A stretch of DNA of 64,000 nt from an uncultured Actinomycetota bacterium (GCA_963796315.1 CAWCLH010000019.1:144048-208047); one strand, 5' to 3'; counted from the first letter of the stretch, positions 10,254 to 58,025 are shown. Program-made: numbers and translations. The notes: generated by a model not told the origin, from the letters alone.

Positions 10254-10266
10254 ATCCTTCCGGCGG

Positions 10267-10713
10267 TTACCGGGCGAGCTCCGCCAGCCGCTCCTGGACG
10301 CGCCGGAGCCGCTCCGCGATGATCGCCGACAGATTGTGCAGCAGCAGCCGCCCGAGCTTGTCGTCGTCGGTCATCAGGCGCCGCACGTCCTCGACCTTGA
10401 GGATCGCCAGGCGGCAGTCCTCGGCGCAGACCGCCGTGGTGGTGAACGTGTGCGGGGGGACCAGGCCCGACCACCCCAAGAGGTCGTCGGGCTTCAGCAC
10501 ATCCAGTTCCACGACCTTCCCGCCGGCATCCATCTGCGTCTTCACCGCACCGGAAAGGATGAAGCAGAGGCCGTAGGCCTCCTCACCCTCTTGGAAGATG
10601 ACCTCTCCGGTGTGGTAGTCCCGGACGATCGCCAGGTCCTCCATCAGGCGGATCTGCTCGGGGGCGAGATCGGCCAATCCGGGTGCGCCGGAGAGATCCA
10701 CATTGGCAGCCAC
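10267..10713 (-). CDS. stand-alone cyclic-nucleotide-binding-like domain protein (paralog 1)
   Basis: 148 aa with a CAP/CNB fold pattern FQEGEEAYGLCFILSGAVK. The phosphate-binding cassette is replaced by GWSGLVPPHTFTT. Confidence 0.7.
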   Translation of the reverse strand: MAANVDLSGAPGLADLAPEQIRLMEDLAIVRDYHTGEVIFQEGEEAYGLCFILSGAVKTQMDAGGKVVELDVLKPDDLLGWSGLVPPHTFTTTAVCAEDCRLAILKVEDVRRLMTDDDKLGRLLLHNLSAIIAERLRRVQERLAELAR

Positions 10714-35243: not shown

Positions 35244-35247
35244 ATCG

Positions 35248-38067: not shown

Positions 38068-38725
38068 CGAGACAGAGGACACCCACGCCCTCTACCCGCT
38101 CGCCCTTCGGTTGAGCGGCCGGTCTTGCCTGGTCGTGGGCGGAGGATCGGTGGCGGCGAGGAAGACGGCCTCGCTGCTCGAGGCCGGCGCGCGGCTGCGG
38201 GTGGTCGCGCCCGAACTCGGGCCCGAACTGGCGGCGGATCCCGGACTGGGGGCCCGCTGGGGATGGCTGGAGCGGCCGTTCCTGAGCGAGGACGTCGACG
38301 GCTGCCTCTTGGTCGTCGCGGCCACCGACGACCGGGAGACCAACCGGCGGGTCGCCGAGGCTGCACGGGCGGCCGGGGCGCTGGCCAACGTCGTGGACGA
38401 CCCCGACGGGTCCGATTTCCACGTGCCCTCGGTCGTCCAGCGCGGCTCCCTCCAGTTGACCGTCTCCACCGGCGGCCGGGCGCCCTCCGTCTCCGCCCGT
38501 CTGCGTCGCCGCTTGGAGGAGGACTTCCCGCCCGTCTGGGCCGAGGTCGTGCGCGAGTTCGGGCGGGCGCGGGACGTGGCCCGCTCCGCCGGACTGGACC
38601 AGGCCTCGCGGCGGCAGCTCTCGCGGGCCCTGGCCGACCTGGACGTGGAGCGGCTGTTGTCGGAAGGCGGCCTGAACCGAGTCAAGGAAGCGGTGCGGGC
38701 ATGCACATCGCCGTACTCGGCGTAA
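38054..38725 (+). CDS. precorrin-2 dehydrogenase / sirohydrochlorin ferrochelatase (SirC / CysG N-domain-like)
   Basis: 223 aa with the Rossmann motif CLVVGGGSVAARKTASLLEAGARLRVVAPE. Confidence 0.8.
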   Translation: MTSTSETEDTHALYPLALRLSGRSCLVVGGGSVAARKTASLLEAGARLRVVAPELGPELAADPGLGARWGWLERPFLSEDVDGCLLVVAATDDRETNRRVAEAARAAGALANVVDDPDGSDFHVPSVVQRGSLQLTVSTGGRAPSVSARLRRRLEEDFPPVWAEVVREFGRARDVARSAGLDQASRRQLSRALADLDVERLLSEGGLNRVKEAVRACTSPYSA

Positions 38726-40023
38726 ACCACAAGACCGCATGTATCGAGGTCAGGGAGCAGGTCGCCCTGACGGACGACGGCTGCCGCGACCTCGTCCGAG
38801 AGCTGACGGCGCAGCCCGGGGTCCACGAGGCCGTGGCGGTCAGCACGTGCAATCGCACCGAGCTGTACGTGGCCGGCTCGGACCTCCCCCTCGATGAGCT
38901 CGCGGTCGCCGGCCTCTGCAGCGCGACCGAGACCTGTCGCAGCGAGCTGCTCGACAGCACGTACTACCTGGAGGACCGGGAGGCCGTCCGGCACCTCTTC
39001 ACCGTGGCCAGCTCGCTGGACTCGATGGTCCTGGGCGAGGCCCAGATCCTCCACCAGCTGAAGACCTCCTACGGGCTGGCGGAGCAGGCGGGGGCGACGG
39101 GCACGGTCCTCAACAAGCTGCTGCGCCGTTCGTTCGAGGTGGGGAAGCGGGTCCGCACGGAGACGAAGATCGGTGAGAGCTCCCTGTCCATCGCGTCGGT
39201 GTCCGTGGACCTCGCCCGGAACGTCTTCGGCGAGCTGGGCGACCGCGTGGTCCTGGTCATCGGCGCGGGGGAGATGGCCGAGCTTGTGGTCACTCACCTC
39301 CAAGGCCACGGCATCCGCCGGATCATGGTCGCCAACCGCACGTTCGAGCGCGCCGTGGAGCTGGCCGCCCGGTTCGGCGGCGAGGCCGTCCCCTACGAGG
39401 GACTGGAAGACCACTTGACCCAGGCGGACATCGTCATCAGCTCGACTGCGGCGCAGGAGCCCATCATCCGCAAGGCGGACATGGACCGGGCCATGCGCCG
39501 GCGCAAGAATCGGCCCGTCTTCCTGATCGACATCGCCGTCCCGCGAGACATCGCCGCCGACGTCAGCAAGGTCTACAACGCCTACCTCTACGACATCGAC
39601 GACCTGCAGGACGTGGTGGCCTCCAACCTGGACGACCGGCAGCGCGAGGCGGTCGTCGCGCGCGAGATCGTGATGCAGGAGGTGGACCTGTTCGAGGAGT
39701 GGCTGAAGAGCCTCTCGGTCGTCCCCACGTTGGTCTCCTTCCGGGAGTGGGCCACGGCGGTCAAGGACGAGGAGCTGGAGAAGTACCTCGCCAAGATGCC
39801 GGAGCTCACCGAGGACCAGCGCAAGAAGATCGGCGCCCTGGCCCACTCCCTGGTCAACAAGTTCCTGCATCCGCCCACGGTCCGGATCAAGGAGATGGCG
39901 ACCGACGCCGAGGGGTACCGCTACGCGGAATCCCTGCAGGTCCTGTTCGACCTGGGCGCGGACGACCTCGACAAGACGCCGGCCATCGACCCGTCCATGC
40001 CGGCGGCCACCCGCCGCGACTAG
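38701..40023 (+). CDS. hemA: glutamyl-tRNA reductase
   Basis: MHIAVLGVNHKTACIEVREQVAL, catalytic-region STCNRTELY, and NAD site VLVIGAGEMAELV. Confidence 0.93.
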   Translation: MHIAVLGVNHKTACIEVREQVALTDDGCRDLVRELTAQPGVHEAVAVSTCNRTELYVAGSDLPLDELAVAGLCSATETCRSELLDSTYYLEDREAVRHLFTVASSLDSMVLGEAQILHQLKTSYGLAEQAGATGTVLNKLLRRSFEVGKRVRTETKIGESSLSIASVSVDLARNVFGELGDRVVLVIGAGEMAELVVTHLQGHGIRRIMVANRTFERAVELAARFGGEAVPYEGLEDHLTQADIVISSTAAQEPIIRKADMDRAMRRRKNRPVFLIDIAVPRDIAADVSKVYNAYLYDIDDLQDVVASNLDDRQREAVVAREIVMQEVDLFEEWLKSLSVVPTLVSFREWATAVKDEELEKYLAKMPELTEDQRKKIGALAHSLVNKFLHPPTVRIKEMATDAEGYRYAESLQVLFDLGADDLDKTPAIDPSMPAATRRD

Positions 40024-40039
40024 CCCAAGGAGCCCGGCC

Positions 40040-41000
40040 ATCGACCAGCGACAGATCGTCATCGGTTCCCGCAAGAGTCCCCTGGCCATGACGCAGACCC
40101 ACCTGGTGCGGGACCTGCTGTTGAGCCTAGACCCCACGATCGAGGTCCGTGTCGAGCAGATCGTGACCTCCGGAGACAAGATCCTCGACTCGCCGCTGTC
40201 CCGCATCGGCGACCGCGGGCTGTTCGTCAAGGAGATCGAGCAGGCCCTGCTCGACGGCAGCATCGACCTGGCGGTCCACAGCGCCAAGGACGTCCCCACC
40301 GAACTGCCGCCCGGCCTCTCCCTGCTGGCGTTCCCCGAGCGGGAGGACCCCAGCGACGTGTTCGTCGGCCGCCTGAGCGGCCCCGCACGAGCTGGGGGCG
40401 GGACGGGTGATCGGTACCAGCAGTCTCCGGCGCCGCTCGCAGCTCTTGGCGGTCTACCCCGGTCTGGAGACGGTGGACATCCGCGGCAACGTCGAGACCC
40501 GCATCCGCAAGATCGAGGAGGAGGGGTTGGACGGCACCATCTTGGCGGCGGCCGGTCTTCGCCGGCTCGGCCGTCCACAGGACGCCGCGTTCGTCTTCCC
40601 GCTGGAGGTCATGGTCAGCGCCGTGGGGCAGGGGTCTCTGGCCCTGGAAGGCCGGGACGACGACGCGGTGGTCGGCCCGCTCCTCGCGGCGCTCGACCAC
40701 GCGCCCACCCGGACCGCGGTCCTGGCCGAGCGCGCCTTGATGCGTCGTCTGGAAGGGGGCTGCCAGGTACCCATCGGTGCCCGAGGGGTGCTGGAGGACG
40801 GGCGGCTGCGTCTGGTCGCCTACATCGGCAGCGTGGACGGCACCAAGCACGTGCGCATGGAACGCGTGGGTCCGGCGGCCGACCCCGAGGCTCTGGGGGA
40901 AGCCCTGGCAGAGGTCATGCTCGCCGCCGGCGGCGACGAGATCCTACAAGCGGTGAGGGGAGGGACCTCGTGGGGCGATCCGAACCCGAGTCTGACGTGA
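40040..41000 (+). CDS. hemC: hydroxymethylbilane synthase (porphobilinogen deaminase) HemC; +1 frame change at about 40381-40384 and non-canonical start as assembled
   Basis: - The conserved N-terminus IVIGSRKSPLAMTQT lies upstream of the first ATG (40088).
- AAGGAG at 40027-40032 precedes ATC 40040.
- The first frame is lost after DVFVGRLSG at a C4 run.
- The next frame continues ELGAGRVIGTSSLRRRSQLL...GGCQVPIG. Confidence 0.85.
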
Positions 41001-42568
41001 GCTCGGCGGCTCCGGGGCCCTACCGGCCGCCGCGCGTCTTCCTGGTGGGCGCGGGACCGGGCGACCCGGACCTGATCGCGGTCCGGGGACTGCGGCTCTT
41101 GCAGACGGCCGACGTCGTCCTCTACGACCGGTTGGTCGACCCCAGCCTGCTCGAGCACGCGCCGGCGGGCGCGGAGCTCATCTACGTGGGCAAGCGGACC
41201 GCCGAGCACACCCTGCCTCAGGACGAGATCAACCGGCTGATCGTGGAGCACGCCCGTCGGGGCAAGCTGGTCGTCCGGCTGAAGGGAGGCGACCCCTACG
41301 TCTTCGGGCGGGGCGGCGAAGAGGGAGCCACGCTGCACGAGGCCGGCATCCCCTTCGAGGTGGTCCCGGGCATCACCGCCGGCATCGGTGCGACGGCGTA
41401 CGCGGGCATCCCGGTGACCTACCGGGGCATCACCTCGCACGTCACGTTCGTCACCGGTCACGAGGATCCGTTGAAAGACTCGGCCCAGCTCGATTGGGAC
41501 AAGTTGGCCTCGGGGGTCGGCACCCTGGTCATGTACATGGGCGTGAAGAACCTGCCCAACGTGGTGGCGAAGCTGATGGACCGCGGCCGCCCCGCGGACA
41601 CGCCGGTGGCGCTGGTCCGCTACGGCACGCTGCCCAGCCAGCAGTCGGTGGTCGGCACCCTGGCGGACATCGTCGAGAAGGTGGCCGCCGCGAAGCTGCG
41701 GCCACCGGCCATCACCGTGGTGGGCGACGTGGTGGGCCTGCGGGAGCGGCTTTCCTGGTTCGAGGAGCGCCCTCTCTTCGGCCGCCGCGTGGTGGTCACC
41801 CGCCCCCGCGGGCAGGCGGGCCCGCAGATCCAGGCGCTTCGCGACCTGGGGGCGGAGGTGGTCGCTTTTCCCACCATCCGGATCCAGCCGGTCACCGACA
41901 CGCCGGAGATCGACGCCATGATCGGCGCCCTGGCGGACTACCGGCTGGTGGTCTTCACCAGCGTCAACGGGGTCGAGTGCTTCTTCGATCGACTCCGGGC
42001 CGCCGGCCTGGACGTCCGTCGACTCCATGCGGCCACCGTGGCGGCGGTCGGACCGAAGACCGCGGCCGCCTGCCGAAAGCACGGCCTCCTGCCCGATGTG
42101 GTCCCCGACACGTTCGTGGCCGAAGGGGTGCTCGAAGCCCTCTCCGGGTTCGATCTCGCCGGCGCGCGCGTGCTCCTACCGGTCGCGCGGGAAGCCCGGG
42201 CGCTCCTGCCGCAGGCCTTCTCCGCGGCGGGGGCCACGGTGGACGCGGTGCCGCTCTACGATACGCTGCTCGACGACCGGGACGCGGACGAGATCGAGGC
42301 GGTGCTGGACGCCGACTTCGTCACGTTCACGTCGAGCTCGACCGTCGAGCACTTCGCCGCCCTGCTGCGCCGGGAAGGGCACGAATCGGAGTTGACGCGC
42401 GTGCGTGCCGTGTCGATCGGCCCGCTGACCACCGAGAGCGTCCGCGCCCTCGGGATGGACCTGGTGCTCGAGGCCGAGGAGTACACCGTGGAGGGGATGG
42501 TGTCCGCGCTGGCGGCGCACTGCCTGGTCACGAGCAGCGGCCCAGACGTAGGGACCTGCATCGCTGAT
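40997..42568 (+). CDS. uroporphyrinogen-III C-methyltransferase (CobA/SUMT) fused to uroporphyrinogen-III synthase (HemD); 3' end uncertain
   Basis: - GTG 40997 overlaps the hemC stop.
- SUMT: VFLVGAGPGDPDLIAVRGLRLLQTADVVLYD...GGDPYVFGRGGEE.
- HemD: LFGRRVVVTRPRGQAG...
- As assembled, the frame runs into hemB without a stop. Both other frames stop at about 42548-42568. Confidence 0.8.
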
Positions 42569-42596
42569 ATACTGCCTGCACCCGTGGGGGTGCAGG
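42565..42596 (+). promoter_or_regulatory. TGaTATACT extended -10-like element followed by a 9-bp stem-loop, between the HemD and HemB coding parts
   Basis: TG at 42565-42566, TATACT at 42568-42573, and hairpin CCTGCACCC-gtgg-GGGTGCAGG at 42575-42596. Confidence 0.3.
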
Positions 42597-42652
42597 ACCC
42601 GGCCCCGTGCCCTTGTGAGCGGATGCGCAACATCTCTGGAGGCGTACAGACC

Positions 42653-43714
42653 ATGTACTTCCCTCAATACCGGCCACGCCGGATGCGTCAGACAGATACC
42701 CTCCGGTCCATGGTCCGCGAGACCCATCTTCATCCCCACGTCCTCGTCTACCCTCTGTTCGTCATCCACGGCGAGGACGTCAAGAACCCGGTGCGGTCGA
42801 TGCCCGGCGTGTATCAGCTCTCCATCAACAACCTCATCGAAGAGGCCAAGGAAGTCTTCGCCCTGGGCGTCCGCACCGTCCTGCTCTTCGGGATCCCCAG
42901 CGTCAAGGACTCGGTGGGCTCCGGAGCCTACGATCCGGAGGGCGTCGTTCAGATGGCCATCCGGGCGCTGAAGGAGCAGGTGCCCGGCCTGACGATCATC
43001 GCCGACGTGTGCATGTGTGAGTACACCGACCACGGGCACTGCGGCATCGTCAAGGGCGGGTGCATCGACAACGACCTGACCCTGGAGCTCTTGGCGAAGA
43101 GCTCGGTCAGCTTCGCCGAAGCGGGCGTCGACGTCGTGGCCCCGTCCGACATGATGGACGGGCGGATCTCGGCCATCCGCTCCGCGCTCGACCAGGACGG
43201 GTTCAGCAACGTGCCCATCTTCTCCTACAGCACCAAGTACGCGTCCACCTTCTACGGCCCTTTCCGCGACGCCGCCGAGTCGCCTCCGGCCTTCGGCGAC
43301 CGCCGCTCCTACCAGATGGACCCGGCCAACTCGGACGAAGGACTGCGCGAAGCGCTCATGGACATCGAAGAGGGCGCGGACATGGTCATGGTCAAACCCG
43401 CCCTGCCGTACCTGGACGTGATCTACCGGCTGAAGAGCGAGACGCGGTTCCCGGTGGCCGCCTACAACGTCAGCGGCGAGTACGCCATGATCAAGGCCGC
43501 GGCAGCTGCGGGGTGGTTGGACGAGAAGGCGGCGGTGATGGAAGCGCTCCTGTCGATCAAGCGTGCGGGTGCCGACCTGATCATCACCTATCACGCCAAG
43601 GACGCGGCCCGCTGGATGGCGGAACGGATGTTGGGAAAGGCGGAGGCGGGACTGTCGCCGGAGTCCGCCGCCTCCCTGTCCGGCACGCAGACGGTGATGC
43701 CGCATGAGGTCTGA
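42653..43714 (+). CDS. hemB: porphobilinogen synthase (delta-aminolevulinate dehydratase)
   Basis: GGAGG lies 9 nt upstream of ATG 42653. MYFPQYRPRRMRQ, Zn-type site DVCMCEYTDHGHCG, and active-site region MVKPALPYLD. Confidence 0.92.
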   Translation: MYFPQYRPRRMRQTDTLRSMVRETHLHPHVLVYPLFVIHGEDVKNPVRSMPGVYQLSINNLIEEAKEVFALGVRTVLLFGIPSVKDSVGSGAYDPEGVVQMAIRALKEQVPGLTIIADVCMCEYTDHGHCGIVKGGCIDNDLTLELLAKSSVSFAEAGVDVVAPSDMMDGRISAIRSALDQDGFSNVPIFSYSTKYASTFYGPFRDAAESPPAFGDRRSYQMDPANSDEGLREALMDIEEGADMVMVKPALPYLDVIYRLKSETRFPVAAYNVSGEYAMIKAAAAAGWLDEKAAVMEALLSIKRAGADLIITYHAKDAARWMAERMLGKAEAGLSPESAASLSGTQTVMPHEV

Positions 43715-43716
43715 TC

Positions 43717-44892
43717 ATGGGGTCTGAGTCTGAGATGATGCCTACCGGTCCCGAGCCGGTCGGCGAAAGCCGGCCCGCCGTCGAGTACCTGCCGAAGCTG
43801 ATCGCCTGGGAGGTGACCCGCTCCTGCAACCTCGCCTGCCGGCACTGCCGGGCTTCGGCGGAGAAGGGTCCCTACCCGGGAGAGCTCACCACCGAGCAGG
43901 GTAAGGCCCTGCTGGACGACATCGCCTCGTTCGCCAACCCGGTGCTGATCATGACCGGCGGCGACCCTTTGATGCGCGCGGACATCTGGGAGCTCGCCGA
44001 GCACGGCATCAACGAGGCCGGCCTGCGTGTGGTGATGTCTCCCAACGGCACCTTGGTCACCCCCGAGGTCGCCCGGAAGATGAAGCAGATCGGCATCCCC
44101 CGCATCTCCATCTCCATCGACTTCCCCACCGCCGAGCTGCACGACGCGTTCCGCGGCGTGCCGGGCGCCTTCGAGGGCGCCGTGCGCGGGGTGCGTCACG
44201 CCATCGAGGCCGGCGTGCAGGTCCAGATCAACGCCACCATCACCAAGTTGAACGTGGACTACCTGGACGAACTGCTCGCGCTCTCCGTGGAGCTGGGCGC
44301 AGTGGCCTTCCACCCGTTCCTGCTGGTCCCCACCGGTCGCGGGAAGGAACTGGGTCCCGAGGAGCTGCCGCCGGAAGACTACGAGCGCACCCTGAACTGG
44401 GTCTACGACCGCCAGAAGACCTCGGACATCTTCTTCAAGCCTACCGACGCTCCGCACTACCATCGCATCATGCGTCAGCGGGCCAAGGAGGACGGCACCG
44501 ACCTGTCCGAGCTGAAGATGCATCCCCACTCGCACGCCATGATGACCGGGGGCGTCGGTAAGGCCCGCGGCCACGGAGACATGGACTCCCACTCGAAGGG
44601 GTGCCTGGCCGGTACCGGCTTCTGCTTCATCAGCCACGTCGGGCGAGTCCAGCCGTGCGGCTACTTCGACGTGGAGGCAGGCGACGTCAAGACGCAGCCC
44701 TTCTCGGAGATCTGGCGCACGTCGCCCCTCTTCCAGGACCTGCGCGACGTCTCCCTGCTCAAGGGGAAATGTGGGTACTGTGAGTACCGCAGGGTCTGCG
44801 GCGGCTGCCGGGCCAGGGCCTACGAGGTCACCGGCGACTACCTGGCGGAGGAGCCGTACTGCATGTACGAGCCGGTCCGCTGCGCCGTCTGA
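43717..44892 (+). CDS. radical SAM/SPASM protein, AhbD/NirJ-like (candidate haem synthase of the sirohaem-dependent route)
   Basis: 391 aa. The CNLACRHC radical SAM site, GGDPLMR, and a C-terminal Cys-rich SPASM-like CGYCEYRRVCGGCRARAY. Last gene of the hem cluster. Confidence 0.6.
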   Translation: MGSESEMMPTGPEPVGESRPAVEYLPKLIAWEVTRSCNLACRHCRASAEKGPYPGELTTEQGKALLDDIASFANPVLIMTGGDPLMRADIWELAEHGINEAGLRVVMSPNGTLVTPEVARKMKQIGIPRISISIDFPTAELHDAFRGVPGAFEGAVRGVRHAIEAGVQVQINATITKLNVDYLDELLALSVELGAVAFHPFLLVPTGRGKELGPEELPPEDYERTLNWVYDRQKTSDIFFKPTDAPHYHRIMRQRAKEDGTDLSELKMHPHSHAMMTGGVGKARGHGDMDSHSKGCLAGTGFCFISHVGRVQPCGYFDVEAGDVKTQPFSEIWRTSPLFQDLRDVSLLKGKCGYCEYRRVCGGCRARAYEVTGDYLAEEPYCMYEPVRCAV

Positions 44893-48547: not shown

Positions 48548-48575
48548 TGGACAGCCCTTGATTGGATGCTATAGT
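48548..48575 (+). promoter_or_regulatory. candidate promoter of the cytochrome operon (TGGACA-16-TATAGT with TGc extended -10)
   Basis: TGGACA at 48548-48553 and TATAGT at 48570-48575, in the divergent intergenic region about 200 nt upstream of ORF A. Confidence 0.3.
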
Positions 48576-48779
48576 AGCAAACTGCAGCTGGCTTGTGAAA
48601 AGTGGTGCTACGGACTCGGATGCGGGCCGCTGCGGTGCAGTACGAGGAAAGAGGAGACCCTGCCAGTGCGAGGGTCGAAGCCCGCGCGACACGCTCGGTG
48701 TCCCGGTCAGTAGACTCGCTGTCTTCCTTCCAGCGAACATGCGCGTCACGGACACGTCAGGCGAGTGGTGAAAGGCGGC

Positions 48780-49562
48780 ATGGCGAGCAAGCAACCCCTG
48801 CGGTTCAGGGTCTACGATGCCAGAGGACGCGCGGTCCGGGTCAAGAAGCGGTACCTCATCCTTCTTCTGGTCGGTCTGGCGACGGTCGGCGGAGCGTTCC
48901 TGTTCGTCCCGTTCTACGTGACGTCCACCCCGAGCTTCTGTTCCAACTGCCACGTGATGGACCCGTTCATCACGTCGTGGGAGCACAGCACTCACGCGAA
49001 GTTCCCGTGTGACAAATGCCATGTCAAACCGGGGGTCGTCAATCGCGTGGTCAACCAGTTCGCGGTGACCAAGAACGTCTATCTCGACGTCTTCGGCCAG
49101 GCCGAGATGCCGCACGAGATCCGGTCCGCCACGAATCAGAACTGCCTGCAATCGGGGTGCCACACCACGAACCGCATGGCGTCCACCTCGGGTGACCTCC
49201 TCATCCCGCACCGCGACCATGTGGAGATGCGGGGGCTGCAGTGCAAGGACTGCCACTTCAACGTGGTGCACACGCCGGAGGGAGGCACCCCGGTGCCGCC
49301 GATGGGCGTCTGCGCCATGTGCCACGACGGCAAGAAGGCGCCCAACGACTGTAAGACCTGTCACAAGAACCCACCCACGGCCTCCGAAGCGCACCCGAAC
49401 CTGGCCCTCGAGCAGCACGGAGCGCTGGCCAAGGGTCGCGAACGCGACTGCCTGCGCTGCCATCACGCCGACGCGTCCTTCTGCGAACGCACCGGCTGCC
49501 ACCCACAGGGGACGTTCCAGAAGCTGACGGATGAAGAGCGGATGCAGGAAAGGTTCCAGTAG
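48780..49562 (+). CDS. multihaem cytochrome c A: NapC/NirT/NrfH-like, N-terminal TM anchor, 6 CxxCH + 2 Cx4CH
   Basis: TM helix LILLLVGLATVGGAFLFVPFYV is followed by TSTPSFCSNCHVM...W..STHA..PCDKCH, the NapC/NirT hallmark. Variant sites are CLQSGCH and CERTGCH. An alternative GTG start lies at 48765. Confidence 0.85.
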   Translation: MASKQPLRFRVYDARGRAVRVKKRYLILLLVGLATVGGAFLFVPFYVTSTPSFCSNCHVMDPFITSWEHSTHAKFPCDKCHVKPGVVNRVVNQFAVTKNVYLDVFGQAEMPHEIRSATNQNCLQSGCHTTNRMASTSGDLLIPHRDHVEMRGLQCKDCHFNVVHTPEGGTPVPPMGVCAMCHDGKKAPNDCKTCHKNPPTASEAHPNLALEQHGALAKGRERDCLRCHHADASFCERTGCHPQGTFQKLTDEERMQERFQ

Positions 49563-49564
49563 TC

Positions 49565-50536
49565 GTGAAGTGGCCTCGTTTCCTCGCTATCCAGGACGAG
49601 TCGGGCCGCGCGGTCCGGGTCCGCTGGCGCTACCTTCTTCTGATCGCCGCGGCGCTGGTGGTGATCGGGGTGGCCGCCGTCTACCTGCCGGTCGCCATGA
49701 CCTCCACCCCCAGCTTCTGTCAGAACTGCCACCTCATGAAGGAGCCCACCGCCTTGTGGGAGGAGTCGACCCACGCCAACGTGAACTGCGTGCAGTGTCA
49801 CGTCGAGCCCGGCATCCTGAAGACGCTCGAGCACAAGGCCCTGTCGTACAAGGAGATCTACTTCAACTTCTTCGGCGAGGGCCGCATGCCGGAGGACATC
49901 GCGTTGCCGACCAACGCGGCCTGCCTCCAATGCCACAACCTGGACCGCACGGTATCCCCGGGCGGCGACATCAAGATCCCCCACCGGGAGCACGTGGAGA
50001 TGCGTAACCTCAAGTGCGCCGATTGCCACTTCAACGTGGTGCATACCCGGCGGGGCACTCCCGGTGGCGCGCCGCCCATGGACATCTGCTACATGTGCCA
50101 CGACGGCAAGCGGGCGCCGAACGCCTGCGACACTTGCCACACCACGCCGGTCAAGGACCTGCAGAAGCAGGGTCACCCGACCGACGCCCTCCAGAACCAC
50201 GGCAAGCTCGCCCAGGACCGGAGCGAAGACTGCAAGCGGTGCCACAGCGACCGCTCCCGCTTCTGTGAGAACTGCCACAACAAACCTCCCGCCAGCCACA
50301 AGGCGGCCACGTGGCGGTACACCCACAAGACCGTGGTCGAGACGAGCGGTCGCGCGACGTGCGAGGGTTGCCACAAACCCGAGTTCTGCCAGAAGTGCCA
50401 CAAGGTGCAGCATCCGCCCAACTGGAAGCAGGTGCATAAGGAGTTCGCGCAGGGTGGCGGCGATGCGTGCCAGGTATGCCATTCGCCCAACTTCTGTCAG
50501 GATTGTCACAAGGCCTCCGGAGTCACGACCAAGTAG
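49565..50536 (+). CDS. multihaem cytochrome c B: NapC/NirT-like paralog of A with C-terminal dihaem-repeat extension, 12 CxxCH
   Basis: TM anchor followed by TSTPSFCQNCHLM...STHANVNCVQCH. Collinear with A through CKRCH..FCENCH, then has two extra CxxCH-x4-CxxCH units. Confidence 0.88.
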   Translation: MKWPRFLAIQDESGRAVRVRWRYLLLIAAALVVIGVAAVYLPVAMTSTPSFCQNCHLMKEPTALWEESTHANVNCVQCHVEPGILKTLEHKALSYKEIYFNFFGEGRMPEDIALPTNAACLQCHNLDRTVSPGGDIKIPHREHVEMRNLKCADCHFNVVHTRRGTPGGAPPMDICYMCHDGKRAPNACDTCHTTPVKDLQKQGHPTDALQNHGKLAQDRSEDCKRCHSDRSRFCENCHNKPPASHKAATWRYTHKTVVETSGRATCEGCHKPEFCQKCHKVQHPPNWKQVHKEFAQGGGDACQVCHSPNFCQDCHKASGVTTK

Positions 50537-50549
50537 AGGGAGGATCGGC

Positions 50550-51515
50550 GTGCTTGGCAACAGGAAAAGTGCGGGCCCGCTAGCGAAAAGATTCACGCGC
50601 TCGACTGCGCGTGCGGTCGGGCTCGTGGTCGGCGCGCTCGTCGCCCTCCTCGTGCTGACCGGGACGGCCCTCGCGCAGGACGCGACCACCACCTCGGCCT
50701 CGACCACCACGACCACGGCCGCCGCCCCGGAGACGGACAACACGGCTCAGTGCCTGACCTGCCATCAGGAGACGTACCTGGGCAGCGTGAAGGACAGCAC
50801 GGGCACGAAGAACCTGCATATCGACGGCGCCGCCTACAAGGACTCCGCCCACGGGCTGCTCCCCTGCAACTCCTGCCACATCAACTTCAGCCACAATCCG
50901 CACCAGATGGTGAAGAACGCCGAGTTCTTCGCCAAGACCGCGGGAGAGGCGTGCCGCAATTGTCACGACGACCAGTTCGAGATGTACAAGCAGAGCTACC
51001 ACGGGAAGCTGACCAAGGGCGGCGTGGCGGACGGCACGGCGGCCCCCCTCTGCGTGGATTGCCACGGCGCGCACGCCGTGAAGAAGGTCAAGAGCACCGA
51101 GTACCGCCGGGAACTGCAGGATATCTGCGGAAAATGCCACGGTGGCCGCGAGTCCAGCTTCCTGGACACATACCATGGTAAGGCCATCACGCTCGGCCGC
51201 GACGCCGCCGCCACCTGCGTCGATTGCCACGGTTCCCACAGCATCCTGCCGGTCGCCGATCCCAAGTCCACTCTCTCCCAGGCGAACATCCTGCCAACGT
51301 GCCAGAAGTGTCACCCACAGGCTGAGAAGGGTTTCACCACCTTCCTGGTCCACGTCAAGCCCACGTCTCCCAAGGCCCCGCTGATCGTGTTCGTCGTGGC
51401 CATCTTCTACATCAGCATGATCGTGGCCGTGTTCGTCTTCGGGGGCACGCACACCCTGCTGTACATCTACCGCGGGCTGAAAGACGGGCTGTACTTCAAG
51501 AAGGGAGGGCACTGA
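50550..51515 (+). CDS. multihaem cytochrome c C: 7 CxxCH, signal peptide, Thr-rich linker, C-terminal TM helix
   Basis: GAGGGAGGA upstream of GTG 50550. Signal peptide AVGLVVGALVALLVLTGTALA-QD. Repeated (S/Y)xHG...CxxCHGxH pattern. C-terminal helix LIVFVVAIFYISMIVAVFVFGG. Confidence 0.85.
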   Translation: MLGNRKSAGPLAKRFTRSTARAVGLVVGALVALLVLTGTALAQDATTTSASTTTTTAAAPETDNTAQCLTCHQETYLGSVKDSTGTKNLHIDGAAYKDSAHGLLPCNSCHINFSHNPHQMVKNAEFFAKTAGEACRNCHDDQFEMYKQSYHGKLTKGGVADGTAAPLCVDCHGAHAVKKVKSTEYRRELQDICGKCHGGRESSFLDTYHGKAITLGRDAAATCVDCHGSHSILPVADPKSTLSQANILPTCQKCHPQAEKGFTTFLVHVKPTSPKAPLIVFVVAIFYISMIVAVFVFGGTHTLLYIYRGLKDGLYFKKGGH

Positions 51516-52393
51516 TGTCGACGGTCAGCGCCACCGCCACCAAGGTGGAGACCACGCACGCCGGAGTCGACACCCACCTGGTCTACCGCCGGTTCAGCGC
51601 CTTCCACCGGTTCAATCACTACCTGGTCATGATCAGCTTCTTCGGCCTGGTGCTGACCGGCATCCCGCTGAAGTTCAAGACCAGCTATTGGTCCGAGGTC
51701 ATCATGAACGCCGTAGGCGGCGTCTCGAACGCCGGCTTCGCCCACCGCACCTTCGCCGTGGTCAACATCCTGTACTTCGTGCTGGAAGGCGGCTACATGC
51801 TGTTGTACGTCGTGCGGAGGAGGGGCCCCGTCTTCGGTGCGGACTCCATCGTGCCCAGCCTGAAGGACTGGGAGGACCTCAAGGGCATGTTCAAGTGGTT
51901 CTTCGGTCGCGGCCCCAAGCCCCGCTTCAACCGGTTCACCTACTGGGAGAAGTTCGACTTCTGGGCTCTCTTCGCCGGGACCGTCTTGATCGGTGGCTCC
52001 GGCCTGATGATGTGGTTCCCCGAGCTCACCACGCGGTACCTGCCGGGGATCACGCTCAACGTGGCTTTGGTGCTCCACTCGAACGAGGCGTTCCTCGCCA
52101 CCGGAGTCATCTTCATCTTCGTGCACTTCTTCTCGGCGCACGGACGTCCCGAATCGTTCCCCGCCGACGAGGTCATCTTCTCGGGCTACCTTCCGCTGGA
52201 GCACTACATCGAGGACCGGCCGGCCGAGTACGTCAACCGGCTGAAGGCCGGCACCCTGGAGGAAGTGGTCACTACCCTTCCGGCGGAGGGTCGTCGCCGC
52301 GTGTTCAGCTGGGTGACGGCGGTGTTCACGGTCTTCGCCTTCCTGGCCTCGGCGTTCACCTTGCTCCTGATCATCTGGCCGCTCTTCTTCTAG
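51515..52393 (+). CDS. dihaem cytochrome b membrane subunit D (FdnI/HydC/PhsC-like)
   Basis: The start overlaps the stop of C (TGATG). RFSAFHRFNHYLVMISFFGLVLTG, FTYWEKFDFWALFAG and LHSNEAFLATGVIFIFVHFF carry the conserved His positions. Confidence 0.8.
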   Translation: MSTVSATATKVETTHAGVDTHLVYRRFSAFHRFNHYLVMISFFGLVLTGIPLKFKTSYWSEVIMNAVGGVSNAGFAHRTFAVVNILYFVLEGGYMLLYVVRRRGPVFGADSIVPSLKDWEDLKGMFKWFFGRGPKPRFNRFTYWEKFDFWALFAGTVLIGGSGLMMWFPELTTRYLPGITLNVALVLHSNEAFLATGVIFIFVHFFSAHGRPESFPADEVIFSGYLPLEHYIEDRPAEYVNRLKAGTLEEVVTTLPAEGRRRVFSWVTAVFTVFAFLASAFTLLLIIWPLFF

Positions 52394-52412
52394 GCGGAGC
52401 CGGCACGACGTT

Positions 52413-53444
52413 ATGAAAGACCGATTCCAGAGGCAGAAGGGGGATCTCATGGTGGGAACTTGCTCGGCCACGCGCGGCAAGACCGGGCATAGGCGTCATC
52501 GACATGAACGGGTGGCAGGGCTACTCGTCGTGACGCTGGCGCTGTTCCTGGCGATGACCGGCTCGGCGCTGGCCCTCGACCCGGAAGGCTGTCTGATCTG
52601 CCACGGCGATCCCAACTTCACCAATCCCAACCCCCGTGAGGGATATCCGACCTCCCTCTACGTCGACCCGGCCGCCTTCTCGAAGTCGGTCCACGGCAAG
52701 AACAAGTGTTCGAGCTGCCACAAGGGTTTCACCCTGTCGATGCCGCAGCATCAGACCGACCCCAGCAAGGACTACAAAGCGGTCGCCATCGAGGCCTGCG
52801 AGGGATGCCACAAGAAGGAGTTCATGGCCTACCAGACCTCGGCGCACGCGAAGATGTACTTCGGATCGGACACCGGTCCCATCTGCATCTCCTGCCACGG
52901 GTCGCACGAGATCAGGAAGGTGCAGCTGGGCCACGAGTCGGCGGAATTCAAGATGAGTATGGCCCGCGATTCCTGCGGCCGTTGCCATCAGGACAAGTTC
53001 GAGAAGGCGAAGAACGAGTTCCACTTCAAGGCGCTGTCCCTCGGCTATGCCCGGGCCGCCACGTGCTTCGACTGTCACGGTGCCCACGAGAACCTGGCGC
53101 TGAAGTCGGGTCAGGAAGAGACCGTAAAGCAGTGCCAGCAGTGCCATCCCGGCGCGACGAAGTCTTTCACCTACTTCCAGATGCACCTCGCCGACAACTT
53201 CGGCAACGCCTGGTGGGGCGTGCGTCTGGTCTACCGCTTCTTCAGCACGCTGCTCCTGGTGGTGCTGGTGACCGGCATCGCCTATACCACGGTCCACTTC
53301 CAGAAAGAGGTCCGCGAGGTCCTCGGCGTGTTCGGACGCGGAATGGGCCGGATGTTCGGCTACATCCGGGCGCTGGAAGACGAGTCGGTCCGCGAGAAAG
53401 TCAGCGACGAGCCGAGCCCGCAAACAGGACGCGCCGGGACGTGA
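52413..53444 (+). CDS. multihaem cytochrome c E: paralog of C, 7 CxxCH, signal peptide and C-terminal TM helix
   Basis: Signal peptide LLVVTLALFLAMTGSALA-LD, with the same SxHG...CxxCHGxH spacing as C. C-terminal helix FFSTLLLVVLVTGIAYTTV. An alternative start at 52449 has a better RBS. Confidence 0.85.
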   Translation: MKDRFQRQKGDLMVGTCSATRGKTGHRRHRHERVAGLLVVTLALFLAMTGSALALDPEGCLICHGDPNFTNPNPREGYPTSLYVDPAAFSKSVHGKNKCSSCHKGFTLSMPQHQTDPSKDYKAVAIEACEGCHKKEFMAYQTSAHAKMYFGSDTGPICISCHGSHEIRKVQLGHESAEFKMSMARDSCGRCHQDKFEKAKNEFHFKALSLGYARAATCFDCHGAHENLALKSGQEETVKQCQQCHPGATKSFTYFQMHLADNFGNAWWGVRLVYRFFSTLLLVVLVTGIAYTTVHFQKEVREVLGVFGRGMGRMFGYIRALEDESVREKVSDEPSPQTGRAGT

Positions 53445-53462
53445 TGAGAAGGGGGACAGCTG

Positions 53463-54227
53463 ATGGTCGACGTGACCCATTCCTTCGCGGAGCCGACCGC
53501 TGCCACGGCCGTGACGGTCGAGAAGCCGACGACCCACTACGTCCGCTTCTCCCCGTACCTCCGCCTCAGTCACTTCATCATGATGACCACCTTCATCGGG
53601 TGTGCGCTCACCGGCCCTCCGCTCAAGTACAGCTACGACGTGTGGGCCCAGACGCTGATGGGCTTCTGGGGCGGCGTGCAGAACGCGGGACTCATCCACC
53701 GCATCATGGCCGGGTTCATGATGGGCGACTTCTTCGTCCATGCCCTCTACCTGGGTTACTGGATCGTCATCAGGAAGGCCAAGGTATTCGGCCCGGACTC
53801 GATCATGTTCCGCAAGAAGGACCTGAAGGATTTCCTCGGGATGGTGCTGTGGTTCTTCGACCGAGGCCATCGGCCTCGGTTCGAACGGTTCACCTTCTGG
53901 GAGAAGTTCGACTGGTTCGCCGTCTTCTGGGGCATCGCGATGATCGGCACTTCGGGGTTCATGCTCTGGTTTCCGACGATCACCACCACCGTGCTCTCGG
54001 GCATCTTCCTCAACGTCGCCCGAGTCATTCACGGGGACGAGGCGATCCTGGCCATCGGCTGGATCCTGTTCGTCCATCTCTACAACTCCCATCTCCGGAT
54101 GAACGTCTTCCCGATGGACCCGGTCATCTTCACCGGGAAGATGCCGATCGAGCACCTCAAGCACGACAAGCGCGCCTGGTACGACCGGCTGGTGGCCGAA
54201 GGCAAGATCAGGCCGGAGGAGCAATGA
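53463..54227 (+). CDS. dihaem cytochrome b membrane subunit F (paralog of D)
   Basis: RFSPYLRLSHFIMMTTFIGCALTG, FTFWEKFDWFAVFWG and IHGDEAILAIGWILFVHLY. Confidence 0.8.
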   Translation: MVDVTHSFAEPTAATAVTVEKPTTHYVRFSPYLRLSHFIMMTTFIGCALTGPPLKYSYDVWAQTLMGFWGGVQNAGLIHRIMAGFMMGDFFVHALYLGYWIVIRKAKVFGPDSIMFRKKDLKDFLGMVLWFFDRGHRPRFERFTFWEKFDWFAVFWGIAMIGTSGFMLWFPTITTTVLSGIFLNVARVIHGDEAILAIGWILFVHLYNSHLRMNVFPMDPVIFTGKMPIEHLKHDKRAWYDRLVAEGKIRPEEQ

Positions 54228-55136
54228 TCCCGCGCCTCATCAGGCTCGGGCGCGCGAGGCTTCACGACCGGCCGGTGCGGCGAGGCTCGACGCTGGGCCC
54301 CGCTCGCGGTCCTCGTGGGTCTGGTGTTCGTCGCCCTCGTGCTGGCGGGCTGCAGCTCTGCCAACTCGCAGACGGGCACGACTGTCGACTTGACGAAGAA
54401 CGTCACCGCGGCCGAGCAGCAGACGCCCGGCGCCCCGTCCCCGAAGAATCCGTCGGAGTTCATCTCACTGTGTGCCAACTGCCACGACCGCCTGGACACG
54501 CCGCTCGCCTGGCGCCAAGAGCGCAAGCTGGTGTTCAACCACGCGGCTCATTTCGCGAAAGGTATCCGCTGCGTGGCCTGTCACCAGGAATTCCCCCATA
54601 AGCCGGGGAAGACCCTCCACGTCTCCGTCGAAACGTGCTTCATGTGCCACGGCGCCATGCACGGCGCGGAGGGCATTCTGGCGCCGACGAGTTGCGACAC
54701 CTGCCACACCCGCGACATCGCCACCATCACGCCCGATCACCAGCGGGCGGATTGGCTGTTGGTCGGCGGCTCCAAGCTGGCTTTGCACAGCGTCGAGGGC
54801 AAGCAGCGCCCGCTCTACTGCCGCATGTGTCACGAGCAGAGTTTCTGCAGCGACTGCCACAAGATCGAGATGCCGCATCCGGCCGGTTGGGTCACGTCCG
54901 GCCATCAACCGGTGGCCACTTCCGACCGGACCTCTTGCGTCCGGTGCCATCCCGAGAAGAACTTCTGCAACGACTGCCATCACAAGGCTCTGCCGAAGCT
55001 CGCCGATTGGAGCCAGCAGCACAAGGTGGTCGCGGTCAGCAAGGGTCCCGAGAGCTGCTACACGTGCCACAAGCCGCTGTTCTGCTCCGCCTGCCACGTG
55101 AAGGTGGGCCAGCACCGCGGAACGCTCGGGAAGTAG
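54224..55136 (+). CDS. multihaem lipoprotein cytochrome c G: 10 CxxCH; +1 frame change in the signal-peptide n-region (about 54270-54295) as assembled
   Basis: ATG 54224 overlaps the stop of F (ATGA) and reads MIPRLIRLGRARL.... The main frame continues RRWAPLAVLVGLVFVALVLAGC (lipobox LAGC). A c3/c7-like FNHAAH..CVACH module is followed by three CxxCH-x4-5-CxxCH units. The intact part alone is 54315-55136. Confidence 0.8.
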
Positions 55137-55169
55137 TCGCGCAGATCGTGGAGGGAAGGGGAGCGCACA

Positions 55170-56006
55170 GTGGATAGACGAGGACGCGCTACAGGCCTCG
55201 GTCTCACAGTCAGCCTGGTGCTGCTGCTCCTTCTGCTTGTCCTGGTGAGTGGGTGCGGAAGCGGACCCTCCGACGCCACGGCCGCGGCCACCACGACGAC
55301 CACGGGGTTGGTGGTACCCCTCAAGAACTCGACCTGCCTCTCGTGCCACAAGGACTTCGAGCAGGTGGTCGCACGAGAGGACCAGAAGAAGTTCTCGCAC
55401 TCGCTCCATCTGCAGCAGCGCCTGGACTGCGTCACCTGTCACGCGGATGTGGGTCATGCCGGGGGGGTGCTGCCGCCACAGTCGCTCTGCGACGACTGCC
55501 ACGGCCTGCCCATGCCGCATCCGGCTGATTTTCAGACGACACACGGCAAGATCGTGGTCAAGAACGGCGACGCGCTCTGCGCTCGTTGCCACAACGTCTA
55601 TCTTCACTGTCAGGAGTGTCACGGGCTGCAGATGCCTCACCCGGCCAACTGGAAGCAGAAGCACGGCACCATCGCTCAGCCGGAGATGGAGACCTGCGTC
55701 ACCTGCCACCCGAAGACCTTCTGTCTCTCGTGCCACCCGGTGGAGATGCCCCACCCGACCAACTGGACGGCGAAACACGGCCTGACCGTGAACGCCAAAG
55801 GGTCGGCCACCTGCACCATGTGTCACGAGCCGAAGGATTGCACCGCGTGCCACGGTCTTCCCATGCCACACCCTCAGGACTGGGGGACCGGACACCAGAG
55901 CGCAGCCGCCAAGGACCGTGAGGGATGCATGCTGTGCCACGACCGGAAGGACTGCGAGCAGTGCCACGCACTCCATAAGACCCACGTCCAGGGAGGAGGT
56001 GCCTGA
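55170..56006 (+). CDS. multihaem lipoprotein cytochrome c H: 11 CxxCH, four MPHP repeats
   Basis: Lipobox LVSGC, Thr-rich linker AAATTTTTG, and a FSHSLH..CVTCH module. It also has four dihaem units and four CH-x3-MPHP-x2-(W/F) tails. Confidence 0.88.
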   Translation: MDRRGRATGLGLTVSLVLLLLLLVLVSGCGSGPSDATAAATTTTTGLVVPLKNSTCLSCHKDFEQVVAREDQKKFSHSLHLQQRLDCVTCHADVGHAGGVLPPQSLCDDCHGLPMPHPADFQTTHGKIVVKNGDALCARCHNVYLHCQECHGLQMPHPANWKQKHGTIAQPEMETCVTCHPKTFCLSCHPVEMPHPTNWTAKHGLTVNAKGSATCTMCHEPKDCTACHGLPMPHPQDWGTGHQSAAAKDREGCMLCHDRKDCEQCHALHKTHVQGGGA

Positions 56007-56947
56007 TGACCTCCACGCCCAAGCGTCGGATCGCCGGGCTCATCGGCGCCGTCCTTCTCCTGGCGGTCCTGGTCCTCGTCCTGGGCATCGTCACGGGACG
56101 CGCCGACCTTCGGGCGGCCACCTCATCGACGAAGGGTCAGAAAGGGGACAGCCTGACCGCCCTCCCCACCGATACCGCCAACAGCAAGGCGGGCGCCCCG
56201 ACGGAATCCGGAGGGGAGCCGTTCCGCACCTGTATCGCCTGCCACCCGACGTACGAGCGCAAGCCCGACCCGACCGGCGACCTGATCTTCTCGCACCAGC
56301 GGCACACCCTGCAGGGCATAGCCTGCGCCACCTGCCACAAGCCACCGCTGGGCCACTTCGGCCAGCCCGCGCCGCTCATGACCACCTGCCTCTCCTGCCA
56401 CCAGGGAGACACAGCGCCGAACGACTGCAAGAAGTGCCACCGCAACTTGGAGGCGATCGCTCCGGGCTTGGGCAAGCAGGTGGTGCACCTGAAGCCGGAC
56501 GCCAAGACCCGTCGCACGTGCGAGAAGTGCCACGACGTCAACGTCTGGTGCGAACAGTGCCATGGAGTGGCCATGCCCCACCCGGTGGCCTGGAAGCAGA
56601 TCCACGGCGGCTACGCGCTGAAGGACCCGCAGGTCTGCGAGAAATGCCATCAGAGCAAGGACAAGACCTTCTGCGTGCGGTGCCACGGCGTGGAGATGCC
56701 GCACCCGGCGTACTGGTACTCCAACCATGGCGACATCGCCCGCACCAACAGCCAGACCTGCACGACCTGCCATCCGAACCGTTCGTTCTGCCAGGATTGT
56801 CACCATGCCGGCTTCTCGCCCACCGCGGCCTGGGCTTCCTCTCAGCACGGGCAGGCGGTAGCCAAGAAGGGGACCCAAGCGTGCTTCGTCTGCCACGACC
56901 AGACGTTCTGCGAGCGCTGCCATCCGACCGGCAAGTACAAGAAGTAG
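56006..56947 (+). CDS. multihaem cytochrome c I: N-terminal TM anchor, 12 CxxCH
   Basis: The start overlaps the stop of H (TGATG). TM helix LIGAVLLLAVLVLVLGIV, a FSHQRH..CATCH module, and four dihaem units, two of them with an MPHP tail. Confidence 0.88.
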   Translation: MTSTPKRRIAGLIGAVLLLAVLVLVLGIVTGRADLRAATSSTKGQKGDSLTALPTDTANSKAGAPTESGGEPFRTCIACHPTYERKPDPTGDLIFSHQRHTLQGIACATCHKPPLGHFGQPAPLMTTCLSCHQGDTAPNDCKKCHRNLEAIAPGLGKQVVHLKPDAKTRRTCEKCHDVNVWCEQCHGVAMPHPVAWKQIHGGYALKDPQVCEKCHQSKDKTFCVRCHGVEMPHPAYWYSNHGDIARTNSQTCTTCHPNRSFCQDCHHAGFSPTAAWASSQHGQAVAKKGTQACFVCHDQTFCERCHPTGKYKK

Positions 56948-57069
56948 ACCGACGGGCGGCAGAATGGGTGATCCGGCGGCCCGCCTGACGGTTTGCGACC
57001 GCCGAGAGAATCGTGGACAATCGACGCCGTCATCGAGGAGGGATTGGAATGAGGGAAGGAGGTGAGTTC

Positions 57070-58025
57070 ATGCTGCACAAGCGAGTGACGTTCCTAGGGC
57101 TGTTGCTCACGGTGGGCCTGATCGTCGCCCTGGTCGTAGCCCTAGGTGGCTGCACCTCGGCGAACGAGACGAGCACCACGACGGAGCAGTCCTCGACCAC
57201 CGCGCCGGGCGAGACCGTGACGACGACGCCGGCAGTCACGGGCACGACGACGGCGCCGACAGGCACGACGACGGCCAGGCGGCGGGGGAGAGACCACCAG
57301 TACTCCCGGCACCGGAGAGTCCGTCGCGCCCGTGTCGGACAACTTCAAGATCTGCACGCAGTGCCACAGCGATTTCAACGCTTTCCTGGCCACCAGTAAG
57401 GTGCTGACGAAGAACTTCAGCCACGCGGTGCACCTGAACAAGGGGTACAAGTGCGAGGACTGCCACGTGGTCCCCACGCATCAACCCGATCGGATCGTGC
57501 CACCCACCCATGCTGAAATGCTTCCAGTGTCACAGCCAGGAAGCCGGAGCCAAGGCACCCGGTGCGTGCGGTACCTGCCATCCTCCCAGCTTCCCGCTGG
57601 TGCCCGCCAACCATAATCAGCAGACGTGGTTGCCGGTGAACGTGACGACTCCGACCAAGACGGTGGATTCCAATCACTCAGCCGAAGCGAAGAAGAACCG
57701 GGACTACTGCGCGATGTGTCATGCGGCGAAGTTCTGCAACGACTGCCACAAGACCCAGATGCCGCACCCGGCTGACTGGCAGCAGGTCCACCCGCAGCAG
57801 GTGAAGTCGTCGGGATCCGCGAGCTGCACTCGTTGCCACCCGGCCAAGTACATCTGCGAAGACTGCCACCACACCGGTTACAAGCCCGGTACGCCGTGGA
57901 CGCAGCAGCATCCGCCCATCGTGAAGACGAACGGCGCCGACGGATGCTTCAAGTGCCATAACCCGCTGACCTGCGCCCACTGCCATGTCACGGGTCAGTT
58001 CAAGGACATCGCGCCGAGCGGCTAG
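57070..58025 (+). CDS. multihaem lipoprotein cytochrome c J: 10 CxxCH; split over three frames as assembled (changes near 57277-57289 and 57500-57509)
   Basis: - GGAGG lies 8 nt upstream of ATG 57070.
- Lipobox ALGGC and a long Thr-rich linker.
- Second frame: GETTSTPGTGESVAPVSDNFKICTQCH...FSHAVH..CEDCH.
- Third frame: MLKCFQCH...CGTCH..., followed by three dihaem units. Confidence 0.75.

Follow-up and report, generated by a model that had tools for sequence, protein, structure and literature searches.

CbcL is one of three known gates that match the respiration of Geobacter to mineral redox potential. As a low-potential oxidase of menaquinol, the protein serves extracellular electron transfer (10.1101/2021.04.15.440034, 10.1101/2022.08.31.506072, PMC9129911); its N-terminal half has nine CX2CH motifs, and its C-terminal half has six transmembrane helices and a HydC/FdnI-like dihaem b domain (PMC6295460, PMC9129911). 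A 64,000-nt stretch of DNA from the metagenome-assembled genome (MAG) of an uncultured member of the Actinomycetota (Thermoleophilia), called the window here and numbered along its + strand, raises the question of whether the same machine can be encoded as two separate subunits. Within a run of ten co-directional multihaem cytochrome genes, A through J (48765-58025), the window carries two adjacent gene pairs, C-D and E-F, each composed of a seven-haem cytochrome c gene and a dihaem cytochrome b gene. The first-pass annotation had proposed that these pairs follow the logic of CbcL as two polypeptides in two diverged copies, and this proposal is supported by BLASTP comparisons, a phylogenetic tree and the haem-ligating His residues. 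We consider it probable that C-D and E-F are paralogues which belong, as two-subunit forms, to the CbcL/MtrH/MtoC family of inner-membrane bc-cytochromes and act in outward electron transfer.

Two paralogous gene pairs

The four genes are read from the + strand as follows.

C, 50550..51515, + strand: seven-haem cytochrome c subunit (seven CxxCH motifs, similarity to the CbcL c domain, conserved orthologues)
D, 51515..52393, + strand: CbcL-type dihaem cytochrome b (PF01292 match, similarity to the CbcL b domain, His ligands, AlphaFold2 model)
E, 52413..53444, + strand: second seven-haem cytochrome c subunit (CxxCH count, homology to C, alignment, orthologues)
F, 53463..54227, + strand: second CbcL-type dihaem cytochrome b (similarity to the CbcL b domain, four His residues)

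Gene C starts at GTG 50550, which is preceded by the ribosome-binding site GAGGGAGGA, and encodes a product of 321 amino acids (aa). Its stop codon and the start codon of D overlap as TGATG, and 18 nt separate the stop of E from the start of F, in agreement with the close spacing of 1-18 nt described at first pass. The start of F is preceded by the ribosome-binding site AAGGGGGA. The same site occurs in E, 7 nt ahead of an internal ATG at 52449, and the ATG at 52413 has no good site; the true start of E is probably ATG 52449. Pairwise alignment of C with E (301 aa, 32% identity, E-value 2e-47) and of D with F (247 aa, 45% identity, E-value 2e-70) bears out the claim that the two pairs are paralogous.

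Relationship to CbcL and CbcBA

A published fragment of G. sulfurreducens CbcL, taken from the noisy machine-read supplement of PMC9129911, was used to probe 401 genomes of the phylum Thermodesulfobacteriota. Matches were found in 135 of these, the best (94%) in genome G105, whose CbcL orthologue is 618 aa long with nine CxxCH motifs and a Val at position 205, the residue highlighted for CbcL in 10.1101/2022.08.31.506072. In this genome, locus L082 encodes a cytochrome that has seven CxxCH motifs and carries a His in its C-terminal anchor; directly after it come a PF01292 cytochrome b of 230 aa (90.6 bits) and then a c7-polymer cytochrome. CbcBA has been described as a seven-haem CbcA with a His-bearing C-terminal anchor and a four-helix CbcB with three conserved His residues, and its authors found no sequence homology between CbcBA and CbcL (10.1101/2021.04.15.440034). 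We assign the seven-haem gene of G105 and the b gene that follows it to the CbcA-CbcB arrangement; the names CbcL, CbcA and CbcB for the G105 proteins rest on the 94% fragment match, Val205, the counts of nine and seven haems, and a gene order that includes an OmcQ-like neighbour. The G105 CbcA (L082 272-1411) aligns over its whole periplasmic domain with PDB entry 28pb_A (E-value 1e-150, most aligned positions identical), and that chain is assigned here as an orthologue of the periplasmic domain of Geobacter CbcA. The entry is recent, comprises 278 aa and is titled only 'Cytochrome c'.

BLASTP comparison of the four window proteins with these references gave the following values.

D: CbcL b domain, 47-48% identity, E-value 1e-71; CbcB, E-value 0.2
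F: CbcL b domain, 40-43% identity, E-value 2e-53; CbcB, E-value 6.9
C: CbcL residues 79-316 including the anchor helix, 31% identity, E-value 1.6e-32; CbcA, E-value 1e-11
E: CbcL c domain, E-value 1e-17; CbcA, E-value 5e-17

A maximum-likelihood tree groups the CbcL b domain with D and F in a single clade (ultrafast bootstrap 95, SH-aLRT 98), outside which fall FdnI, CbcB and two PF01292 paralogues from the same genome as the window. The b subunits thus cluster with CbcL and not with FdnI. Together, the BLASTP results and the tree indicate that the pairs are CbcL-type by descent, and their gene organization indicates that they are CbcBA-like by architecture.

The resemblance to CbcL (GSU0274) extends through both parts of the protein. 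The b domains share, in addition to 40-48% identity, the loop motif FGPDS..KD..GM..WF.GRGPKP.F.R.TYWEKFD and the distribution of His residues: the anchor helix and the two helices after it have one each, and the fifth helix has two. The c domains are homologous and bis-His, and C and D together contain six transmembrane helices, as does CbcL. The differences are that CbcL is a single polypeptide whereas here there are two, cut in the cytoplasmic loop past the anchor helix; that CbcL has nine haems c and the window proteins have seven; that E-F totals only five helices, with the anchor His moved by three residues; that two copies adjoin; and that the host is a Thermoleophilia genome with no detectable outer-membrane Omp85. 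In terms of the published description of the family, the seven CxxCH motifs in each of C and E lie within the range of 3-23 CX2CH (nine in Geobacter) given for the multihaem c domain, but the pairs depart from the description of c and b parts in one polypeptide with mostly six transmembrane helices, having 1+5 helices (C-D) and 1+4 (E-F) in two.

Haem ligands and fold of the b subunits

The b subunits score poorly against the available family profiles. With PF01292, for which the gathering cut-off is 30.1 bits, D just passes (32.2 bits) and F falls below (18.7 bits), and with the NCBIfam model for the formate dehydrogenase gamma subunit, TIGR01583, D and F reach 38 and 26.9 bits against a cut-off of 115.85. 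D has five transmembrane helices, comprising an FdnI-like four-helix core and one additional C-terminal helix; F has four and lacks the fifth helix of D. In an alignment of 26 relatives, His77, His188, His204 and His209 (D numbering) are invariant and His35 is conserved in at least 90% of the sequences. Although a search of the PDB with D as a single sequence gave no match, a profile built from the 26-sequence alignment matched one family only, FdnI of Escherichia coli formate dehydrogenase-N (1KQF_C, E-value 4.3e-10), and placed His35, His77, His188 and His204 of D on FdnI His18, His57, His155 and His169, which we take to be the four axial ligands of the two haems b in FdnI. Both D and F retain all four, so that the dihaem reading, which loss of these ligands had been named as one way to refute, stands.

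The AlphaFold2 model of D (mean predicted local distance difference test score [pLDDT] 83.7) consists of five long helices, and its only significant Foldseek match is again 1kqf_C, with a TM-score of 0.74 on the target. FdnI also resembles the window system in that its partner FdnH, like C and E, supplies a C-terminal transmembrane helix. That partner, however, is an iron-sulfur protein associated with a molybdoenzyme, in place of a multihaem cytochrome c, and D and F differ further from FdnI in a longer, conserved loop between the second and third transmembrane helices and, in D, in the fifth helix.

D residues 142-146 (window about 51938-51952) read T-Y-W-E-K opposite N-A-G-Q-K in the loop that forms the quinone site of FdnI. 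Glu145, which occupies the position of FdnI Gln113, is nearly invariant across the D/F family and Lys146 is invariant; the most distant split relatives, L059 and L060, have Gln at the position of Glu145. Glu145 is a plausible candidate for the proton acceptor in quinol oxidation.

The c subunits

As described at first pass, C and E each carry a signal peptide, seven CxxCH motifs and a C-terminal hydrophobic helix. The signal peptide ends in ALA-QD in C and ALA-LD in E, and the helix spans residues 278-296 in C and 272-290 in E. The number of CxxCH motifs is exactly seven in both, and neither contains CxxCK. The recurring S/Y-x-H-G ... CxxCH spacing noted earlier was found again. Across an alignment of 21 sequences none of the seven CxxCH motifs varies, and the same holds for six additional His residues (His101, His151, His175, His209, His230 and His268 in C numbering). 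C also contains a Thr-rich linker, and its anchor helix bears a conserved His (FGGTHTLLY); alignment with CbcL, CbcA and fused relatives shows that the anchor-helix His of E is displaced three residues later (AYTTVHF).

A model of C (pLDDT 75) gave no significant match in Foldseek, the best being HAO at an E-value of 0.15, and C is therefore not placed by its fold in any solved enzyme family; a grouping of C and E with subunits of a known enzyme complex had been named at first pass as a second outcome that would refute the CbcL reading. By sequence, the best match of C to a solved structure is 28pb_A (E-value 1.6e-7).

Past its anchor helix E has a cytoplasmic tail (window 53300-53444) with the conserved segment LGVFGRGxGRLFGFIRALEEES. 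All ten of the E orthologues listed share it; C, CbcL and CbcA lack it.

Position and history of the split

Alignment of C, E, CbcL, CbcA and fused relatives shows that C and E correspond to the CbcL c domain without its haems 3-4, which accounts for the count of seven haems c rather than nine. The first transmembrane helix of CbcL (..FWVHTLLWMFRGF..) is matched in this alignment by the anchor helix of C (..FGGTHTLLYIYRGLKDGLYFKKGGH). C terminates in the cytoplasmic loop that follows, and D opens just ahead of the conserved YRRF..H of the next helix. The five transmembrane helices of E and F combined also have precedent, having been reported in a few fused homologues (PMC6295460).

Synteny extends over the entire A-J operon in 11 related genomes, and all 11 carry the c and b parts split. 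Every C and E orthologue in these genomes has seven CxxCH motifs and ends in the same kind of C-terminus; because both pairs are intact throughout, the split is not an assembly frameshift. Among 201 genomes drawn evenly from the class, the b domain was found in 28, distributed over 10 of 87 genera. In this sample, two b copies lie side by side in each positive genome from the family to which the window belongs. In the other positive family the unit consists of a NapC-type gene, a c gene and a b gene, which often occurs twice and whose first copy is frequently a single seven-haem open reading frame (ORF) of 600 aa. Fused and split forms alternate within the Thermoleophilia. The nearest fused relatives of D are seven-haem Thermoleophilia proteins of this kind (e.g., L013 and L017), which are about 52% identical to it in the b domain and are likewise preceded by a NapC-type gene. 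They differ in that c and b form one ORF of about 600 aa, and in that the second, split copy, which lies after another NapC-type gene, is not an orthologue of F.

Fused single-ORF relatives occur in Thermodesulfobacteriota, Syntrophales, Gammaproteobacteria, Pirellulaceae and Victivallales and in many Thermoleophilia. The fused family is very large (>4,000 clusters), and the relatives found with D outside the phylum are mostly fused, with 9-13 haems. A search with F, limited to proteins of similar length, returned 1,532 stand-alone relatives, which beyond its own orthologues are 45-51% identical to it. The two that were inspected, from Gemmatimonadota and Bacteroidetes, each have a multihaem c gene on one side and a multihaem gene of NapC type on the other.

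The first-pass annotation had called the two pairs a tandem duplication. Two adjacent paralogous pairs are indeed present, but they do not stem from a recent local event: in both trees, the F clade falls outside a well-supported clade of D and other Thermoleophilia copies. Since F is not sister to D, either the pairs are old paralogues or E-F was acquired separately, and a recent tandem duplication is rejected.

These observations extend a known family and overturn no current idea. CbcL homologues were earlier noted in 8 of 19 Thermoleophilia MAGs (preprint 10.1101/2022.03.26.485925), and the 2018 survey of the CbcL family considered fused proteins only and listed none in Actinobacteria (PMC6295460). 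The old paralogy, the alternation of fused and split forms and the stand-alone CbcL-type b genes beside multihaem c genes in other phyla lower the novelty of the locus, and the split CbcL, although genuine, departs only modestly from a known respiratory module of wide distribution and would not surprise a specialist. Its value lies in annotation and in the dissection of CbcL, which occurs here as two subunits, twice, in Thermoleophilia, and whose type of b subunit is numerous elsewhere as a stand-alone protein. With F under the PF01292 cut-off, D barely over it, and relatives either unnamed or called formate dehydrogenase gamma subunit, the b family is systematically under-annotated. Surveys of extracellular-electron-transfer marker genes that look for fused CbcL are therefore likely to overlook the split form. 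The natural two-piece form also means that the c and b parts are expressible apart, offering a handle on the anchor-helix His and the b-to-c junction implicated in CbcL redox gating.

A model for electron transfer

We infer from the sequences that C-D and E-F assemble into complexes. D and F would each form an FdnI-like four-helix bundle holding two haems b. If the topology of D follows that of FdnI, its N-terminus would be cytoplasmic, His35 and His204 would bind the haem b on the cytoplasmic side, and His77 and His188 the outer haem. C and E would be exported via their signal peptides and tethered by C-terminal helices that pack on the b subunit like the first helix of fused CbcL, each presenting seven bis-His haems c at the membrane's outer face. 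In C, the anchor helix should run from outside to inside, which would place its His near the cytoplasmic haem and the presumed quinone site. Menaquinol would be oxidised next to the cytoplasmic-side haem b, with electrons crossing via the two haems b to the seven-haem chain, passing on to G-J and ending on an acceptor outside the cell, for instance Fe(III), Mn(IV) or humic substances. Little energy would be conserved if quinol is oxidised on the cytoplasmic side and the electrons flow outward, which agrees with the low yield measured for CbcL-dependent growth (10.1101/2022.08.31.506072).

The genome encodes two MqnA/D loci above the cut-off, and no MenD match above the cut-off was found in the assembly, which is 78% complete. 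Menaquinone would accordingly be made by the futalosine route, and this was the only quinone synthesis detected when the pathway was checked as the first-pass annotation had recommended. One of the MqnA/MqnD loci lies on the same contig (C19, 222953-223733), about 15 kb past the end of the window.

The two pairs, together with A and B, may provide several parallel exits from the quinone pool, probably differing in working potential or partner. That the two copies are tuned to different redox windows or quinones, as was initially proposed, is conceivable. A more ambitious version, which we hold to be unlikely as a whole, is that A-J forms, in a monoderm actinomycete, an entire chain for extracellular electron transfer, which electrons from quinol enter at four parallel points (A, B, C-D and E-F) and in which the two split modules are non-redundant and operate in different redox windows. 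On this view, cutting the protein at the cytoplasmic loop could be what allows c and b partners to be re-paired in evolution. The modules would then be distinguished as C-D, with six helices and its anchor His at the CbcL position, and E-F, with five helices, its His one helical turn off and the conserved E tail, and the whole would be the actinobacterial counterpart of the Geobacter ImcH/CbcL/CbcBA relay.

Alternative readings

Several observations weigh against assigning both pairs to the CbcL family with outward flow. As the BLASTP values for E show, this subunit is no closer to the c domain of CbcL than to CbcA. Homologues of CbcL/MtoC are found in Fe(III) reducers as well as in Fe(II) oxidisers (PMC6295460), so that direction is not readable from sequence. 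The host is known only as an uncultured MAG, and the case is built from sequence and a structural model; the incompleteness of the genome also makes the absence of Omp85 and MenD weak evidence. Finally, J (57013-58025), the last cytochrome of the operon, is frameshifted, its frames running from 57013 to 57399, 57332 to 57616 and 57510 to 58025. In its place the relative L002 has a single ORF of 345 aa (9505-10542), whose product has 10 haems, a lipobox and a Thr-rich linker, and the breaks in J are either two real frameshifts or assembly errors.

With regard to family, the architecture alone recalls CbcBA equally well. In CbcBA (GSU0593-0594; cf. L082), the Geobacter system used near -0.21 V and below, the genes likewise run from a seven-haem c, whose C-terminal anchor bears a His, to a separate dihaem b, and the best solved-structure match of C is a CbcA orthologue, in keeping with a weak similarity of the c domains (E-values of 1e-11 to CbcA and 1.6e-7 to 28pb_A). 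CbcBA membership of the b subunit was accordingly the assignment considered first, and it was ruled out by BLASTP and the tree. D and F are unrelated in sequence to CbcB beyond the PF01292 superfamily, in contrast to their strong similarity to the CbcL b domain, and CbcB lies in the outgroup; CbcB is a strong PF01292 member with three conserved His residues, whereas D and F have four; and no BccR-like sigma-54 activator domain was present in the flanking genes scanned (PIN-TPR, NlpC/P60, radical SAM, GGDEF). We regard a CbcBA-type identity for the pairs as highly improbable. It is hardly credible that D and F serve a formate dehydrogenase or hydrogenase as its gamma subunit, an assignment suggested by the JGI name of their relatives ('cytochrome b subunit of formate dehydrogenase'), by the weak TIGR01583 matches and by the FdnI-like fold. 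The TIGR01583 scores are far under the cut-off, the tree separates D and F from FdnI, and the conserved partner is a multihaem cytochrome c, with no FdnG/FdnH or hydrogenase genes nearby and multihaem cytochromes as the sole neighbours. The FdnI/HydC label was thus ruled out by the NCBIfam cut-offs, gene context and the tree.

Membership of the CbcL family leaves the direction and destination of the electrons to be weighed. In a reversed system, C-D and E-F would take electrons from Fe(II), reduced humics or a syntrophic partner and reduce menaquinone at the cytoplasmic-side site. This would form an FdnI-like redox loop, of the kind proposed for MtoC, that builds proton motive force. In fold and ligand set the b subunit matches FdnI, itself a quinone reductase, and CbcL/MtrH/MtoC homologues in Fe(II) oxidisers share no sequence feature that separates the directions (PMC6295460). 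The closest characterised relative, CbcL, is nevertheless a quinol oxidase, and Glu145, which stands where FdnI has Gln113 and is followed by Lys146, would be suited to taking a proton from quinol; we consider reverse flow unlikely. Doubtful to a greater degree is the idea that the operon serves to respire a soluble substrate (such as nitrite, hydroxylamine or sulfur oxyanions) outside the cytoplasm in the ordinary way, with a downstream multihaem protein as terminal reductase and no electrons leaving the cell. A and B are similar to NrfH/NapC, which usually anchor reductases of this type, genes for the molybdenum cofactor are located upstream, and the C model has its weak, non-significant likeness to the haem core of HAO. 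Against this, the operon cytochromes contain no CxxCK or other catalytic-haem motif, neither NrfA, HAO nor a molybdopterin subunit was found in the operon, and all the cytochromes are tethered, several by Thr-rich linkers typical of wall-spanning proteins. Outward electron transfer by CbcL-type pairs is the reading that we prefer, and the gene context fits it.

Genomic context

The other features of the region, all on the + strand, are as follows.

Promoter-like site upstream of A, 48548..48575, + strand: TGGACA, 16-nt spacer, TATAGT, TG extension
A and B, 48765..50536, + strand: NapC/NirT/NrfH-type membrane-anchored multihaem cytochromes (profile matches, CxxCH count)
G, H, I and J, 54315..58025, + strand: downstream multihaem cytochromes (CxxCH count, lipobox/anchor)
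Haem supply block, 4 kb upstream of the operon, 37027..44892, + strand: CcsA-type assembly protein, HemA, HemC-SUMT-HemD-HemB fusion, radical SAM/SPASM

A and B are further candidate quinol dehydrogenases, with six CxxCH and two CX4CH motifs in A and 12 CxxCH in B. The CX4CH sites of A (48765-49562), CLQSGCH and CERTGCH, stand where its paralogue B has CxxCH. Downstream, the CxxCH motifs number 10 in G, 11 in H, 12 in I and 10 in J (two in the J1 piece and eight in the J piece); G, H and J have lipoboxes and I has a transmembrane anchor. No terminator-like site was detected on the + strand in the operon other than a weak 5-pair site at 55584-55596 inside H.

The genome assembly measures 3.13 Mb, and its relatives are uncultured Thermoleophilia/Actinomycetota. 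Omp85 was not found in it, and all seven of the diderm genomes used as controls were positive. The genome contains three CcsA/ResC-type genes, and the HemC-SUMT-HemD-HemB fusion of the haem supply block is a protein of 1208 aa. Directly before this block, at 34248-36810, lie MoaA and MoaC-MOSC-MoaB. At the other end of the operon, the relatives carry an extra 439-aa multihaem gene past J (L002 10706-12025), and the window has a convergent GGDEF gene there (58167-59159).

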